Positions 1,642-10,835 of a DNA stretch of 10,963 nucleotides are shown one piece after another. Both the position numbers and the translations under genes were made by a program. The DNA lies in UHGV virus genome UHGV-0234540. One strand, written 5' to 3'. Numbering within the stretch: position 1 is the first letter of the stretch; each line of letters begins with the position of its first letter. A model generated the notes under the pieces. The model saw only the letters and a program-made list of their open reading frames with translations, was not told the origin of the DNA and made no database searches. The DNA is from a virus.

Positions 1642-2268
1642 TTAGAGTTCGTATTGAACTCCTTTGACTACACCAATGATAAGGCAATTACCATTGATAG
1701 GGATGTTGGGATACCGAGGATTTAATGGCACTAAAAACTTTTGAGGGCCATCGATGACTAATTTTTTTACTGTAGCTTCGTTTGTTCCATCAAGTCGAGC
1801 GATGACTATTTTTCCATGACGAGGTTCTGCATCTGGATCTACAATCACTGTTGCGCCTTCTGGTATTGTTGGGAGGCCATTAGGGTTAGTCATGGAGTCA
1901 CCTTTAACCTCTAATGCAAATGAGTTATCACCAATCTTTAATGATGTATCTACCCACTTGTCCACTTCACTAAACACTTCTGCTGCCCTGCACTCAGTAA
2001 ACTGCCCAGCCTGAACCCACGATATTACAGGAACTCTGCGCATGTTTGTGACGAGTTTGCCTTCAAACTCAGCACCATAAAGAATGTAATCTATTGACGT
2101 ATTGAAGAACTTCGCTAATTTCGAAAGTGCCTCCCCACCAGGGGTATTGATGTCTTTCTCCCAGTACCCCACAGCAACGTCGCTTACTCCACAAAATTTA
2201 CCCAATTCTTTCTGGGACGTTCTGGTAACTCTTCTCAGAGCTTTTATACGCTGACCAACCGTTTCCAT
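1642..2268 (-). CDS. cI: Prophage repressor, cI/LexA-like (N-terminal XRE-type HTH + C-terminal S24 peptidase autocleavage domain)
   Basis: 208-aa ORF. N-terminal HTH (QKELGKFCGVSDVAVGYWEKD). Probable Ala-Gly cleavage site in WVQAGQF. Catalytic Ser in the KGDSM motif and Lys in ATVKKLV, as in LexA and lambda cI. Divergent from a cro-like gene. Confidence 0.9.
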   Translation of the reverse strand: METVGQRIKALRRVTRTSQKELGKFCGVSDVAVGYWEKDINTPGGEALSKLAKFFNTSIDYILYGAEFEGKLVTNMRRVPVISWVQAGQFTECRAAEVFSEVDKWVDTSLKIGDNSFALEVKGDSMTNPNGLPTIPEGATVIVDPDAEPRHGKIVIARLDGTNEATVKKLVIDGPQKFLVPLNPRYPNIPINGNCLIIGVVKGVQYEL

Positions 2269-4449: not shown

Positions 4450-4938
4450 ATGAGTCTTTTGAATGACGTTCAGAAATTCATTGAAGCCCATCCGGGGTGT
4501 ACTTCCGGAGACATTGCGGATGCTTTTGCAGGTTACTCACGGCAGCGCGTACTGCAGTCAGCAAGCAAGTTACGTCAGAGTGGGCCTGTGGCTCACCGTT
4601 GTGAAGGGGATACACGCAGACATTTCCCGCGCCTGACTGAGAGAGCGCGGGAGCCGGAACCACAACCAGTTCGTGAAACCAGACCTGTGCGCAATTTCTA
4701 TGTCGGCACTAACGATCCCCGGGTGATTTTGTGCCTGACCCGCCAGGCTGAAGAACTGGAGTCAAGAGGCTTATTTCGTCGTGCTGCAACCGTGTGGATG
4801 GCGGCATTCCGTGAAAGCCACTCCCAGCCAGAACGAAACAATTTTCTGGCGCATCGTGAGCGGTGCTTACGGAAAAGCAGCAAGCGCGCTGCATCGGGTG
4901 AAGAGTGGTATCTGTCAGGGAATTACGTGGGGGCTTAA
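4450..4938 (+). CDS. PerC/Pch-like transcriptional regulator with N-terminal winged-helix-like domain
   Basis: The C-terminal segment ELESRGLFRRAATVWMAAFRES matches the PerC-family signature (..RGLWRRAA..W) recalled from memory. ATG 4450 is preferred over GTG 4444 (AGGGGG 6 nt upstream). Its stop overlaps the next start (TAATG). Confidence 0.5.
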   Translation: MSLLNDVQKFIEAHPGCTSGDIADAFAGYSRQRVLQSASKLRQSGPVAHRCEGDTRRHFPRLTERAREPEPQPVRETRPVRNFYVGTNDPRVILCLTRQAEELESRGLFRRAATVWMAAFRESHSQPERNNFLAHRERCLRKSSKRAASGEEWYLSGNYVGA

Positions 4939-5591
4939 TGAGTAATAAATATTGCCGGGCGCTGGTGGAGCTGCGGAACAAACCAGCCCATGAACTGAAG
5001 GAAGTGGGCGATCAGTGGCGCACGCCGGACAACATTTTCTGGGGAATTAACACCCTGTTTGGCCCGTTTGTTCTGGATCTGTTCACTGACGGTGATAACG
5101 CCAAATGTGCTGCGTATTACACGGCGGAAGACAACGCGCTGGCGCATGACTGGTCAGAACGTCTTGCGGAGCTTAAAGGGGCTGCCTTTGGTAATCCCCC
5201 ATACAGCCGCGCCAGTCAGCATGAGGGGCAATACATCACCGGCATGCGTTACATCATGAAACATGCCAGTGCCATGCGTGATAAGGGTGGGCGCTATGTT
5301 TTCCTGATCAAAGCTGCCACCAGCGAAGTGTGGTGGCCGGAAGATGCGGACCATATTGCTTTTATTCGCGGGCGTATTGGTTTTGAACTGCCTGCCTGGT
5401 TTATCCCGAAGGATGAGAAGCAGGTGCCGACAGGCGCTTTCTTCGCTGGTGCTATTGCTGTTTTCGATAAGACCTGGAAGGGACCGGCAATCAGCTACAT
5501 CGGGCGCGATGAACTTGAGGCATGTGGTGAAGCGTTTCTGGCGCAGGTTCGCCAGCAGGCGGAAAAACTGGTCAGGGAGATGGCGGCATGA
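4938..5591 (+). CDS. Phage Dam-family DNA N6-adenine methyltransferase (orphan)
   Basis: NPPY catalytic motif (AAFGNPPYS). N-terminal region typical of phage Dam-family enzymes. Start ATG 4938 overlaps the upstream stop. No adjacent restriction endonuclease. Confidence 0.8.
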   Translation: MSNKYCRALVELRNKPAHELKEVGDQWRTPDNIFWGINTLFGPFVLDLFTDGDNAKCAAYYTAEDNALAHDWSERLAELKGAAFGNPPYSRASQHEGQYITGMRYIMKHASAMRDKGGRYVFLIKAATSEVWWPEDADHIAFIRGRIGFELPAWFIPKDEKQVPTGAFFAGAIAVFDKTWKGPAISYIGRDELEACGEAFLAQVRQQAEKLVREMAA

Positions 5592-5914
5592 CGACGTTAA
5601 CTCAATGCCAGCAGCAGGTGCTGGATATGCTGATTTCTTACCAGAAAGAGCGTGGCTTTCCGCCAACCAATCAGGAGGTGGCAACCATGCTGGGATACCG
5701 TTCAGTGAATGCAGCGGTAGAGCATCTTCGTGCACTGGAGAAAAAAGGCGTCATCACGATAAAGCGTGGCGTGGCCCGGGGGATAACGCTTCATACCGCG
5801 GTGAAGGACGACGACAGCGAGGCGGTCGGGATTATCCGCGCACTGCTTGCCGGTGAGGAAAACGCCAGGCTGCGTGCAGCCCACTGGTTACATGAGAGAG
5901 GCCTGAAAGTATGA
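5588..5914 (+). CDS. LexA N-terminal DNA-binding-domain homologue lacking the S24 peptidase domain (108 aa)
   Basis: Residues 4-68 align with E. coli LexA residues ~4-68 (LTQCQQQVLDMLISYQKERGFPPTNQEVATMLGYRSVNAAVEHLRALEKKGVI versus LexA [53 protein letters not shown]). No Ala-Gly site or Ser/Lys peptidase motifs follow. ATGA overlaps at both ends. Confidence 0.75.
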   Translation: MTTLTQCQQQVLDMLISYQKERGFPPTNQEVATMLGYRSVNAAVEHLRALEKKGVITIKRGVARGITLHTAVKDDDSEAVGIIRALLAGEENARLRAAHWLHERGLKV

Positions 5915-8139: not shown

Positions 8140-8892
8140 ATGAACCTTGAAGCCTTACCAAAATATTACTCCCCAAAATCTCCAAAATTGAGTGATGACG
8201 CACCGGCGACAGGCTCGGGTGGTTTAACAATTACAGATGTGATGGCTGCGCAGGGGATGGTGCAGTCGAAAGCACCGCTTGGGTTTGCCTTATTCCTGGC
8301 AAAAGTTGGTGTTCAGGATCCTCAGTTTGCGATTGAAGGTCTGCTCAATTACGCGATGGCACTGGATAACCCGACATTGAACAAATTGAGTGAAGAAACC
8401 CGGTTACAGATCATCCCTTACCTTGTGAATTTTGCCTTTGCTGATTATTCCAGGTCTGCGGCAAGTAAGGCTCGCTGTGAGCATTGTGCTGGTACTGGAT
8501 TTCATAATGTATTGCGCGAAGTGGTGAAACACTCCAGAAGCGGGGAATCTGTTATCAAGGAAGAGTGGGTGAAGGAACTGTGTCAGCATTGTCATGGTAA
8601 GGGAGAAGTCAGCACAGCGTGCAGAGGGTGTAAGGGTAAAGGTATTGTCCTGGATGAAAAAAGAACCCGGCTTCATGGCACGCCTGTTTATAAGGTTTGT
8701 GGGCGTTGCAATGGAAACCGGTTTAGCCGTTTACCAACCACACTGGCGCGGCTTCATGTCCAGAAGCTGGTACCAGACCTGACGGATTATCAGTGGTACA
8801 AAGGATATGCAGATGTCATTGATAAACTGGTTACAAAGTGCTGGCAGGAAGAAGCATATGCAGAGATACAATTGAGAAAGGTGACAAGATAA
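8140..8892 (+). CDS. Q: Late-gene antitermination protein Q (zinc-finger type)
   Basis: Last gene before the candidate late promoter and terminator and the lysis genes. Four CxxC motifs (CEHCAGTG, CQHCHGKG, CRGCKGKG, CGRCNGNR). ATG 8140 with GTGGAG SD is preferred over the longer ORF start at 8098. Confidence 0.7.
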   Translation: MNLEALPKYYSPKSPKLSDDAPATGSGGLTITDVMAAQGMVQSKAPLGFALFLAKVGVQDPQFAIEGLLNYAMALDNPTLNKLSEETRLQIIPYLVNFAFADYSRSAASKARCEHCAGTGFHNVLREVVKHSRSGESVIKEEWVKELCQHCHGKGEVSTACRGCKGKGIVLDEKRTRLHGTPVYKVCGRCNGNRFSRLPTTLARLHVQKLVPDLTDYQWYKGYADVIDKLVTKCWQEEAYAEIQLRKVTR

Positions 8893-8923
8893 ATGGTTTT
8901 CGCCGAAGATGACGACATGATGC

Positions 8924-8952
8924 TTGCGTTTTTCAAAAAATATGGATAAGAT
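8924..8952 (+). promoter_or_regulatory. Candidate late promoter PR' (-35 TTGCGT 8924-8929, -10 TAAGAT 8947-8952), with the Q-utilisation region expected nearby
   Basis: A -35/-10 pair with 17-bp spacing 30-60 nt downstream of the Q stop and ~50 nt upstream of the intrinsic terminator, as for lambda PR'-tR'. Hexamers are imperfect. Confidence 0.3.
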
Positions 8953-8998
8953 TTTCACAACGATGGGCTTTGTATGTCTACCGTTGATAAGATTTAAG

Positions 8999-9023
8999 AA
9001 CCCGCCACTGAGCGGGTTTTTTT
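8999..9023 (+). terminator. Rho-independent terminator (tR'-like)
   Basis: Stem AACCCGC (8999-9005) / GCGGGTT (9012-9018), loop CACTGA, followed by a T-run to 9023. Confidence 0.7.
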
Positions 9024-9145
9024 GTACCTGTAAACTTGGTGCAGTACAGTAAACACGCTGGTGGTCGTGAATACTGACTTTTTATCTTGCTGGCTTTTTA
9101 GACAAGAGTTACTGGTATGTCATGTTAACCAGAAGGGAAAAAGAC

Positions 9146-9349
9146 ATGCTAAAACAGCAAGATATGACAGAAACCGCCGCCGCAGTCCTTCATTTCTTAC
9201 CTGCTGACAAGTGGGTAACGCCACGCATGATGACGAGAACTACCGGAGTAAGCGAAGCCCGGTGCCAGTTAATACTGACTCAGTTAGTTCTGGCGGGGCT
9301 GGCGAAGGATAACGGCGGGTACGGGAATAAATTCAGACGCTGCCAGTAA
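9146..9349 (+). CDS. Small putative winged-helix DNA-binding protein (67 aa)
   Basis: ATG 9146 with AGAAGGGA SD 7 nt upstream is preferred over ATG 9122. The segment WVTPRMMTRTTGVSEARCQLILTQLVLAGLA has a winged-helix-like pattern resembling the N-terminal domain of the 4450-4938 protein. Confidence 0.45.
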   Translation: MLKQQDMTETAAAVLHFLPADKWVTPRMMTRTTGVSEARCQLILTQLVLAGLAKDNGGYGNKFRRCQ

Positions 9350-9499
9350 TGGCGGTTTCCTGCTGTGAAAATGGGCGGCTGGTGGGTGTTGGTAGCACCT
9401 GCCAGCCATTCGCTCATGCTTACTGGTCACAAGCGAACCACGGCCCACTGCTTTAGCGCAAAAGCAGAGTGAGCCTACCAGAGTTACGCTTACTGATCC

Positions 9500-10552
9500 A
9501 TGAAAAATACTGTAAAAATAAACAGTGTTGATTTAATCAACGCTGATTGCCTGCATTTTATTCAGTCCCTGCCTGATGATTCCATTGACCTGATTGTTAC
9601 CGATCCGCCGTACTTCAAGGTGAAACCCAACGGCTGGGACAATCAGTGGAAAGGGGACGAAGATTACCTTAAGTGGCTGGACCACTGTCTGGCCCAGTTC
9701 TGGCGGGTGTTAAAACCTGCCGGAAGCCTTTACCTGTTCTGTGGGCATCGCCTGGCATCTGATATTGAGATCATGATGCGTGAACGTTTCAACGTGCTTA
9801 ACCATATCATCTGGGCGAAGCCGTCCGGACGTTGGAATGGGTGTAATAAAGAAAGTCTGCGCGCATATTTTCCTGCCACAGAGCGCGTTCTGTTTGCTGA
9901 ACATTACCAGGGGCCATATCGCGGCAAAAGTGACGGCTATGCGGCAAAAGAAAGGGAACTCAAACAGCACATAATGGCACCGCTGATATCGTATTTCAGG
10001 GATGCTCGTGCCGAACTGGGTATAACGGCAAAACAAATTGCCGAAGCCACAGGTAAGAAAAATATGGTTTCCCACTGGTTTGGTGCCAGTCAGTGGCAGT
10101 TGCCGAATGAGGCTGACTATCGGAAGTTACAGGCACTGTTTTCCCGTATAGCGGCAGAGAAGTTTCAGGAACAACAACTGGAACAACCACACCACCAGCT
10201 GGTGGCATCTTATGATTCACTGAATCGCAAATATTCTGAATTGCTGGATGAGTTTAAATCTCTCCGGCGCTATTTCTCCGTATCAGTCTCCGTGCCTTAT
10301 ACCGATGTCTGGATGCATAAACCCGTTCAGTTCTACCCGGGTAAACATCCGTGTGAGAAACCGGCGGATATGCTCAGGCAAATAATCAATGCCAGTAGTC
10401 GACCTGGTGATCTGGTTGCTGATTTTTTTATGGGATCCGGTTCCACAATAAAAGCAGCAATGGCGCTGGGGCGTCGGGCCTTAGGTGTTGAGCTTGAGTC
10501 AGAGCGGTTTAACCAGACAGTGAAAGAGATAAACGAGCTGGTGGGGAAATAA
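9500..10552 (+). CDS. Orphan beta-class DNA methyltransferase (N6-adenine or N4-cytosine type)
   Basis: Motif IV DPPY (LIVTDPPYF) near the N-terminus and motif I FFMGSGST near the C-terminus give the beta-class order. A central insertion (residues ~150-250) contains an HTH-like stretch ([13 protein letters not shown]). No cognate endonuclease adjacent. Confidence 0.85.
9508..9527. promoter_or_regulatory. SOS-box-like palindrome TACTGTAAAAATAAACAGTG (CTGT-N8-ACAG) within codons 3-9 of the methyltransferase
   Basis: Matches the E. coli LexA box consensus TACTGT-(AT)4-ACAGTA at 11 of 12 arm positions with an all-A/T spacer. It is the only CTGT-N8-ACAG found in the window by manual scan. Confidence 0.35.
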
Positions 10553-10558
10553 TCTGGT

Positions 10559-10580
10559 GGCCACGTCAGGTGGCCTTTTT
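10559..10580 (+). terminator. Rho-independent terminator after the methyltransferase
   Basis: Stem GGCCAC (10559-10564) / GTGGCC (10570-10575), loop GTCAG, then TTTTT (10576-10580), 7 nt after the stop at 10550-10552. Confidence 0.55.
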
Positions 10581-10619
10581 ATTTCCATTACACAGCACCC
10601 GCATCTGCGAGGTGGGGTT

Positions 10620-10835
10620 ATGAAATCCATGGATAAGTTAACAACGGGTGTCGCCTATGGCACCTCAGCAGGTAGTGCCGGGTACTGGTTTTTACAGTTG
10701 CTCGATAAAGTCACGCCCTCACAGTGGGCGGCAATAGGTGTGCTGGGTAGTCTGGTATTTGGCCTGCTGACGTACCTGACAAACCTTTATTTCAAGATTA
10801 AAGAAGATAAGCGCAAGGCTGCGAGAGGTGAATAA
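10620..10835 (+). CDS. essD: Class II pinholin, phage-21 S-type (EssD-like), dual-start MKSM motif
   Basis: [26 protein letters not shown]...[19 protein letters not shown] closely matches recalled S21/EssD. Two predicted TM helices. Met1-Lys-Ser-Met4 dual start. GAGGTGGGG SD. The ORF-track start at 10557 is rejected because it runs through the terminator hairpin. Confidence 0.85.

Follow-up and report, generated by a model that had tools for sequence, protein, structure and literature searches.

A putative LexA operator written into the first codons of a prophage DNA methyltransferase gene

The 10,963 nucleotides of virus genome UHGV-0234540 that we analyzed as one stretch (hereafter the window) comprise the early-right and late-control part of a lambdoid prophage, with the lambdoid phages mEp460, Ayreon, cdtI, and SfV as close relatives at up to 99.6% identity. 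Toward its right end lies a plus-strand gene (9500..10552) for a DNA methyltransferase of 350 aa that belongs to the beta class of N6/N4 enzymes and resembles M.EcoGI and M.EcoGII (PF01555, E 2e-42; also matched by a DNA methyltransferase group of the PHROG database). Codons 3 to 10 of this open reading frame (ORF), encoding N T V K I N S V, contain a 20-bp LexA (SOS) box, TACTGTAAAAATAAACAGTG, at 9508..9527 with its core at 9510-9525. From its quality and its pattern of conservation, we conclude with high confidence that this 20-mer is a genuine LexA-type operator kept by selection at the level of DNA.

The methyltransferase gene is preceded by the gene of the antiterminator Q (8140..8892, plus strand; Pfam Antiterm PF03589, E 9e-53; coordinates as annotated in Ayreon), by a probable pR'-like late promoter that we read by eye (TTGCGT-17-TAAGAT, 8923-8951, plus strand), and by a strong intrinsic terminator, tR' (9000-9025, plus strand), which is apparent as a hairpin fold and annotated at the equivalent site in both Ayreon and SfV. 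After its stop codon follow another intrinsic terminator, a hairpin with a T-run (10558..10587, plus strand) that folds well and is annotated likewise in these two phages, and then a P21-type holin gene with boundaries set by comparison with Ayreon (10629-10835, plus strand). The mechanically called holin ORF begins at a GTG at 10557 (10557-10835) and includes this terminator, the real gene being the shorter one. This placement between Q, pR', and tR' on one side and the holin gene on the other implies a late gene whose transcription requires antitermination by Q, in agreement with the first-pass annotation of this DNA.

Between tR' and the methyltransferase gene, we found a small ORF of 75 aa (9122-9349, plus strand; phrog_331 of unknown function, no Pfam match), followed by a terminator-like GC hairpin with a U-rich tract (9339..9362, plus strand; -11.9 kcal/mol) that is weaker than the tR' hairpin and abuts the 5' edge of a structured leader RNA. 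This leader, recognized by its fold and by covariation, spans 9364..9499 on the plus strand, and a GATC sequence, i.e., a Dam site, lies between its last hairpin and the ATG (9495..9498), 10 bp upstream of the LexA box. The C-terminal half of the 75-aa ORF (…ARCQLILTQLVLAGL…) is common to the ORF that precedes the cassette of leader, box, and methyltransferase gene in many other genera, and the small ORF may belong to the same module. In Ayreon (L001, ~1640-2420) and mEp460, an extra insertion of ~680 bp, which holds a terminator besides one or two small ORFs, separates tR' from the small ORF, which illustrates a hotspot of moron insertion downstream of pR'.

The methyltransferase is 81% identical to the enzyme of Shiga toxin (Stx) phage 1720a-02, which has been named as very similar to M.EcoGII (PMC5778455). 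By this likeness, the enzyme encoded in the window is assigned to the M.EcoGI/GII family and predicted to be non-specific as well. With M.EcoGI and M.EcoGII of E. coli O104:H4 prophages it shares the PF01555 family, a length of ~350 aa, and the location on a prophage, and the related gene of 1720a-02 carries an equivalent box, TACTGTAAAAATATCCAGTT, with a heterology index (HI; see below) of 4.0. M.EcoGI and M.EcoGII methylate adenines in any context, are deleterious if made constitutively, and are unexpressed in lysogens (PMC5778455), while the methylome of an O111 Shiga toxin-producing E. coli revealed no activity from M.EcoGII-family homologs (PMC6602927). This silence has been attributed simply to prophage repression in PMC5778455, which differs from the regulation considered here in that LexA, SOS, and a leader RNA are not mentioned in that paper (0 occurrences of LexA or SOS); LexA is not mentioned in PMC6602927 either. 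About a fifth of complete E. coli genomes (1,113 of 5,426) carry the segment comprising the leader and the start of the gene.

The core of the box is an exact CTGT-N8-ACAG with the A/T-rich spacer AAAAATAA, and no second exact copy of this motif occurs in the window. With the ATG at 9500-9502, the 20-mer begins at nucleotide +9 of the ORF, so that the perfect arms, the uniqueness, and the location 8 bp past the start codon were all correctly described in the first-pass annotation. The chance expectation of 0.17 occurrences given there is right for bare arms and understates the case, given that a match of such weight-matrix quality is far rarer. We scored LexA sites with a matrix of 20 positions built on 29 E. 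coli operators, reportedly those compiled by Lewis (1994) and Fernandez de Henestrosa (2000), and the resulting HI values are approximate. The box reaches an HI of 5.0-5.3, in the same range as the boxes of recA, lexA, uvrB, and uvrD, with all 29 known sites scoring 1.1-9.6 on the same matrix and the next-best site in the window scoring 11.9. Not a single site with an HI of 5.3 or less was found in 20 Mb of first-order Markov sequence of the window's composition; under this model, 0.006 sites with an HI of 8 or less are expected per window, and fewer than 0.002 of the quality of the box. The matrix also recovers, as a positive control, paired boxes immediately in front of a dinI-like "DNA damage inducible" gene of phage phiNP, and prophage dinI homologs are known LexA targets (PMC8072944).

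Very strong SOS boxes with an HI of 2.5-5.7 also lie elsewhere in phages 1720a-02 (L163; at 39531, 1292, and 1320) and phiNP (L165; at 35267). Both phages carry strong boxes inside cI-like repressor genes, each ~165 bp into the ORF, an arrangement that has no equivalent in the window, and 1720a-02 has a further pair of strong boxes adjoining its integrase gene.

Could the palindrome be a functionless chance occurrence in A/T-rich coding sequence? Bare arms are, after all, expected 0.17 times per 11 kb, and matches to CTGT-N8-ACAG with at most one mismatch are in excess in the window (10 sites versus 3.9 +/- 2.1 expected). All comparative tests speak to the contrary. A protein-guided scan with one genome per species yielded 80 loci with methyltransferases of 56-93% identity, and 43 of them have a box with an index of 3.6-8.1 whose register is identical, starting at +9 of the ORF. 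Homologs with a box span the Enterobacteriaceae, the Erwiniaceae, Morganella, and Proteus, including loci in Enterobacter, Klebsiella, Citrobacter, Salmonella, Kluyvera, Buttiauxella, and Trabulsiella as well as Kosakonia, Mixta, Rosenbergiella, Erwinia, and others. The peptide encoded by the box varies among these homologs with CTG-N10-CAG remaining invariant, and their boxes always read CTGT-N8-ACAG or CTGT-N8-CCAG, the two common right arms of LexA sites. Wherever Asn8 (AAC) is replaced by serine, the codon is always TCC, which gives CCAG, the second commonest LexA right arm.

The choice of synonymous codons tells the same story. The peptide NTVKINSV has 9,216 synonymous encodings, only four of which reach the observed index, the minimum possible (codon-usage-weighted P 1e-4), and when homologs were recoded with their own peptides, the observed codons gave the best LexA fit for most of them. 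In a codon alignment of 43 distinct homologs with 60-93% identity, zero synonymous entropy is confined to 5 of the 290 scorable columns (codons 2, 4, 6, 7, and 8), and Ser9 is AGT in 42 of the 43 homologs, compared to a median entropy of 1.87 bits for six-fold codons. Across 18 distinct box variants, conservation tracks the information content of LexA sites (Spearman 0.72, P 3e-4) and shows no codon periodicity (1.48, 1.70, and 1.52 bits for the first, second, and third codon position); the T of CTG and the C of CAG, both at third positions, are invariant. Conservation of the palindrome at synonymous positions of homologous methyltransferase genes, the one check proposed in the first-pass annotation that could be computed, is therefore clearly positive. 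It excludes the chance occurrence that had been left open there, which across genera is effectively refuted and to which we assign practically no weight, and it strongly supports an operator.

A shift of the start codon in Gilliamella (Orbales) points in the same direction. In this lineage, the upstream ATG is gone and the box DNA is kept as TACTGTAAAAATGACCAGTA, with the start codon moved into the box spacer by a change of the Ile7 codon from ATA to ATG, meaning that the box has outlived a change in the content that it encodes. Homologs of Photorhabdus and Xenorhabdus have lost both the box (index 16-23) and the leader; they start at the Val5-equivalent codon, several of them with an ordinary Shine-Dalgarno sequence. 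In ten Xenorhabdus loci (L128, L129, L131, L132, L134, L136, L137, L143, L154, and L155; ~1501-1510), the ancestral ATG persists and codon 3 of its frame is a stop (ATG GAA TAG). Translation there evidently begins at a GTG or ATG further downstream, so that box loss goes hand in hand with a relocated start codon.

The same constraint might in principle act on RNA instead of DNA, with the box serving as an AU-rich, weakly hairpinned translation-initiation element whose likeness to a LexA site is coincidental. The methyltransferase ATG indeed lacks a Shine-Dalgarno sequence and lies in an A/U-rich region, codon 2 is invariant despite lying outside the box, and the box always accompanies the leader RNA; moreover, the mRNA of the box could fold an 8-bp hairpin of -7.1 kcal/mol. 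Yet we found no compensatory change in this hairpin among 18 diverse sequences, where every change breaks a pair, whereas the adjoining leader helices covary. Compared to 1,500 synonymous recodings, the observed box is ordinary in folding energy (23rd percentile) and in accessibility of the AUG (~19th percentile; P ~0.2 for these RNA measures), in contrast to its optimal fit to LexA (P ~1e-4). The combination of an optimal LexA fit with ordinary RNA measures and a box devoid of covariation favors selection on double-stranded DNA. Given in addition that a coincidental match of such quality is expected less than 0.002 times per window, that conservation follows LexA information content, and that the alternation of ACAG and CCAG suits LexA sites and not a stem, we regard a purely RNA-level element as very improbable.

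The leader itself is a different matter. Immediately 5' of the ATG, 136 nt (9364-9499) show conservation across families and fold into a three-way junction of P1 (9372-9376/9443-9447), P2 (9377-9407), and P3 (9409-9414/9432-9437), followed by the two hairpins P4 (9448-9467) and P5 (9468-9494), with a minimum free energy of -62.9 kcal/mol (z -4.8) and G-U pairs that favor the plus strand. When 47 distinct sequences are aligned with the model, compensatory changes affect 16 of the 34 leader pairs, and 62 cells are changed on both sides, compared to 14.4 +/- 3.2 in shuffles and 4-17 in slid controls; pair 51/79, for example, occurs as CG (20), AU (9), UA (7), and UG (4). A covariance model of the leader matches every locus with a box, while Rfam 15 gave no match to it at E <= 1 in 8800-9700 and merely noise at E <= 10 in 9340-9540, which covers the leader and the box region. 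When viral loci were ascertained by the leader pattern alone, 107 of 109 evaluable matches had the methyltransferase and the box downstream, indicating that leader, box, and gene form one cassette. The exceptions are two viral contigs, one that has a holin-like ORF after the leader junction in place of the methyltransferase (L423) and one in which an internal deletion fuses the leader to the 3' part of the methyltransferase gene (L341). On these grounds, we propose the leader as a candidate for a new family of cis-regulatory RNAs.

The GATC at 9495-9498 falls into invariant columns of one alignment (A1) and is present in 23 of the 24 rows of another (A2; L230 has TTTC). It is kept from Escherichia to Proteus and absent in the homologs of Photorhabdus and Xenorhabdus that have no box. 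We also considered an upstream ORF coupled to the ATG via a conserved TGA at 9494-9496 and rejected it, as inspection by eye revealed no start codon in this frame.

An operator commonly acts on a promoter, and we searched for one accordingly. A consensus scan revealed, at its threshold, no sigma-70-like promoter near the box on either strand, and recurrent pairs of -35 and -10 elements over 44 homologous loci left two candidates only, each in 26 loci. The sense candidate is an extended -10 element mimicked by the box itself (TGtAAAAAT). We rejected it because transcription would start at ~+27, past the ATG, and the stretch from there to the DPPY catalytic motif offers no usable in-frame start, so that it cannot serve the methyltransferase. 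A further candidate, CTGTGAAAAT (9363-9372) as an extended -10 element for the leader, was rejected because its spacing is not conserved and the P1 stem begins inside it. Upstream of the leader, we detected no excess of promoters over shuffled sequences (7.49 versus 7.55) and no recurrent site; in this region, different loci have unrelated flanks, most of them ending in a GC hairpin and U-tract that abut the leader. Since the P1 stem, which covariation supports, has its first nucleotide at 9372, the transcript must start further upstream, at least 136 nt before the box and with no promoter in between, which judging from the leader structure places the operator inside transcribed DNA as would be expected of a roadblock. 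Like a moron, the cassette has a downstream terminator (10558-10587), though we found no promoter of its own; it appears from this arrangement to rely on transcription from pR'.

The second of the two recurrent candidates is a weak antisense promoter (9504..9531, minus strand) with the -35 element TCAACA (reverse complement of 9526-9531), the -10 element TATTTT (reverse complement of 9504-9509), and a predicted start at ~9497 from which it would read leftward into the leader; its 16-bp spacer is exactly the box core. If the box were the operator of this leftward promoter, cleavage of LexA would release an RNA of ~130-150 nt complementary to the leader that could modulate translation or stability of the methyltransferase mRNA or act in trans as a small RNA (sRNA). 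An operator filling the spacer is classical LexA geometry, the candidate recurs in 26 of the 44 homologous loci including the window (59%), and convergent sRNA genes are known from late regions of prophages (PMC4104026). However, the candidate matches the consensus at only 8 of 12 positions and stays below the threshold of the promoter scan, and its -10 element is destroyed in 18 of the 44 loci (codon 3 being AAC, AGT, or AGC) where the box is still perfect. G-U pairs and covariation furthermore place selection for leader structure on the plus strand, and minus-strand ORFs run into non-homologous flank; those at 9284-9448 and 9280-9417 were rejected as conserved genes for this reason. Finally, an SOS-induced antisense RNA would lower the enzyme just when the phage needs it. 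We therefore consider this use of the box improbable, though less so than an RNA-level element.

Which protein would bind the box? The first-pass annotation had suggested host LexA or a phage-encoded paralog of its DNA-binding domain (DBD), and this paralog is indeed encoded at 5588..5914 (plus strand; 108 aa; Pfam LexA_DNA_bind, E 3e-19; phrog_362, "transcriptional repressor"). It is 43% identical to LexA residues 1-90, with RSVNAAVEHL in place of RSPNAAEEHL in the recognition helix, and it retains Ser39, Asn41, Ala42, and Glu45, which we take to be the base-contact residues of LexA. These retained residues indicate that the paralog could recognize CTGT. It has no S24 peptidase/dimerization domain, the part that provides dimerization and cleavage in LexA; residues 88-90 (AGE) align with the Ala84-Gly85 cleavage site of LexA even so. 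The paralog occurs in 61 phage records. In the window, its start codon overlaps the stop codon (ATGA) of the upstream gene, the phage's own Dam-family methyltransferase gene (4905-5591), and genes for RusA, a KilA-N protein, and a DUF968/HNH protein follow in this order between the paralog and Q; no tRNA genes were found in the window.

With divergent methyltransferase queries, we collected 160 viral loci together with their 10-kb flanks and evaluated the 131 that had at least 6 kb of upstream sequence. Box and paralog occur together in 52 of them, 70 have the box only, 9 have neither, and none has the paralog only. The box might on this account serve mainly the paralog, an uncleavable LexA mimic from the early nin region that would set the timing of the methyltransferase independently of host LexA. 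Its kinship to the LexA DNA-binding domain, the retained residues presumed to contact bases, the status of the box as the sole good SOS box in the window, and the presence of a box in all 52 viral loci with the paralog agree with this proposal. On the other hand, strong binding of a palindrome is not assured for a protein with no dimerization domain, and closely related E. coli phages account for most of the perfect association. Most tellingly, the paralog is absent within 10 kb in 70 of the 122 box-bearing viral loci and from the complete genome of Citrobacter phage phiNP (box index 5.0), and the box is equally well kept there; it is thus maintained independently and does not require the paralog. 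We hence see only a slim likelihood that the box is mainly an operator for the paralog. Host LexA is present in all hosts of box-bearing loci and is the simpler binder, and from these comparisons we consider it probable that host LexA binds the box; in this phage, the paralog may bind in addition. The prophage's own CI was rejected as a binder since the box is conserved over phages with unrelated immunity regions.

Taken as a whole, the observations are best explained, in our view with somewhat more confidence than doubt, by an intragenic operator through which LexA keeps a toxic methyltransferase off until the SOS response. The CI-type repressor of the prophage (1642..2268, minus strand; phrog_4 transcriptional repressor, E 1e-55) has a UmuD/S24-like C-terminal domain (UmuD-like PHROGs at residues 111-205), which implies that prophage induction is RecA dependent and hence tied to SOS. 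The methyltransferase gene, with no detectable promoter of its own, would be transcribed on the late pR' transcript past tR' and the second hairpin. The pR' promoter is described as constitutively active in lysogens (PMC7547250), and a few of the polymerases starting there would escape tR' and leak toward the methyltransferase gene. Host LexA bound to the box would stall these sparse polymerases as they reach the ATG, and the enzyme would stay off. Upon DNA damage, RecA* would inactivate LexA and the S24-type prophage repressor together, and the roadblock would be lifted as dense trains of Q-modified polymerases arrive. Intragenic roadblocks by repressors are established for PurR, GalR, CodY, CcpA, and the C-protein of a restriction-modification system, and LexA is listed among roadblock proteins (PMC10310618). 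For LacI, 96% of sparse polymerases are stopped compared to 73% of those in dense trains (PMC4132739). Roadblocks that are stronger at low polymerase flux behave in a manner that suits a filter for leaky transcription. By analogy with these systems, a roadblock as the mode of action comes close to an even chance, and we infer LexA occupancy, the roadblock effect, and its physiological rationale from the sequence together with these precedents. A coupling of methyltransferase expression to the SOS state, as raised in the first-pass annotation, would follow from this arrangement.

Several points weigh against this interpretation. LacI is a stronger obstacle than a single LexA dimer of nanomolar affinity, and polymerase modified by Q is made to disregard signals for pausing and termination. 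Lytic infection in the absence of SOS leaves LexA intact, which might hinder an enzyme that the phage presumably needs. The box spans +9 to +28 of the ORF and lies outside any promoter, and to our knowledge nearly all characterized LexA operators lie in promoters; the mechanism must hence differ from classical promoter occlusion. Photorhabdus and Xenorhabdus do with neither box nor leader, so that the arrangement is dispensable. The homologs are related, and sequence counts overstate the number of independent events, though this caveat is less weighty for the arguments from recoding, entropy, and register shift, which do not rest on counts alone. Reduced synonymous variation is common at the 5' ends of genes for translational reasons, and codon 2 (AAA), outside the box, is likewise invariant. 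The absolute HI values inherit the approximations of our rebuilt matrix, although the ranking of sites and the CTGT-N8-ACAG core are independent of it. Lastly, in the literature on the site, the paralog, the leader, and LexA roadblocks, we found no published report of LexA binding or SOS derepression at this site.

A more elaborate version of the LexA operator would be a lock with two keys, in which the operator in the first codons acts on elongating polymerase and the leader RNA governs translation from the start codon that lacks a Shine-Dalgarno sequence. In this version, the paralog as an uncleavable mimic of the LexA DNA-binding domain could take over SOS boxes once host LexA is gone, and the methyltransferase, being presumably indifferent to sequence context, could methylate adenines of its own operator and block re-binding of LexA, resulting in a one-way switch. 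In this full form, we consider the proposal rather unlikely.

Compared to the canonical SOS boxes of recA, lexA, umuDC, sulA, and uvrB, the box of the methyltransferase gene has the same 20-bp motif of the TACTGT-N8-ACAGTA class and an HI in the range of bound operators. However, canonical SOS operators overlap the -35 element, the -10 element, or the transcription start, whereas the nearest possible start lies more than 130 nt upstream of this box, which is intragenic at codons 3-10, located in a Q-antiterminated late operon, and written into codon choice. LexA control of prophage cargo is well known, and with such prophage and plasmid genes (Gifsy dinI homologs, coliphage 186 tum, and colicin genes) the locus shares its place on a mobile element with SOS-dependent induction and, presumably, the principle that a costly function is kept off until DNA damage. 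A mechanistic parallel is the PurR roadblock operator in purB, reportedly described by He and Zalkin in 1992. Roadblock operators of PurR in purB, GalR, CodY, CcpA, and the Kpn2I C-protein share a repressor site well downstream of the transcription start, in transcribed or coding DNA (PMC10310618, PMC6237814), and are expected to halt elongating polymerase, most effectively at low flux (PMC4132739). They differ from the present case in that the regulator here is predicted to be LexA and the transcript a phage late transcript under Q antitermination.

In the literature on LexA or SOS boxes in connection with prophage methyltransferases and Stx, Q, or late genes, on phage proteins with a LexA DNA-binding domain, and on prophage sRNAs near Q, we found no earlier report of this arrangement. 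Measured against that literature, a promoterless operator in the first codons of a late gene, optimized via synonymous choice across several families of Enterobacterales, appears new, and so does the association of this predicted operator with the M.EcoGII family and the leader RNA, which has not been described there.

Enzymes of the M.EcoGII type are widely used as non-specific tools for labeling DNA with N6-methyladenine (m6A), and their genes are carried by prophages of about a fifth of complete E. coli genomes and of many other Enterobacterales. The silence of such a dangerous enzyme has hitherto been explained by general prophage repression only. If our interpretation is correct, the codon-embedded LexA operator would place a phage late gene under direct SOS input and constitute a clear natural case of LexA acting within a transcription unit. 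Two synonymous single-base changes, Thr4 ACT to ACC and Asn8 AAC to AAT, should then suffice to kill the operator with the protein unaltered. The locus would also be an example of a regulatory site that shapes synonymous codon choice across genera.

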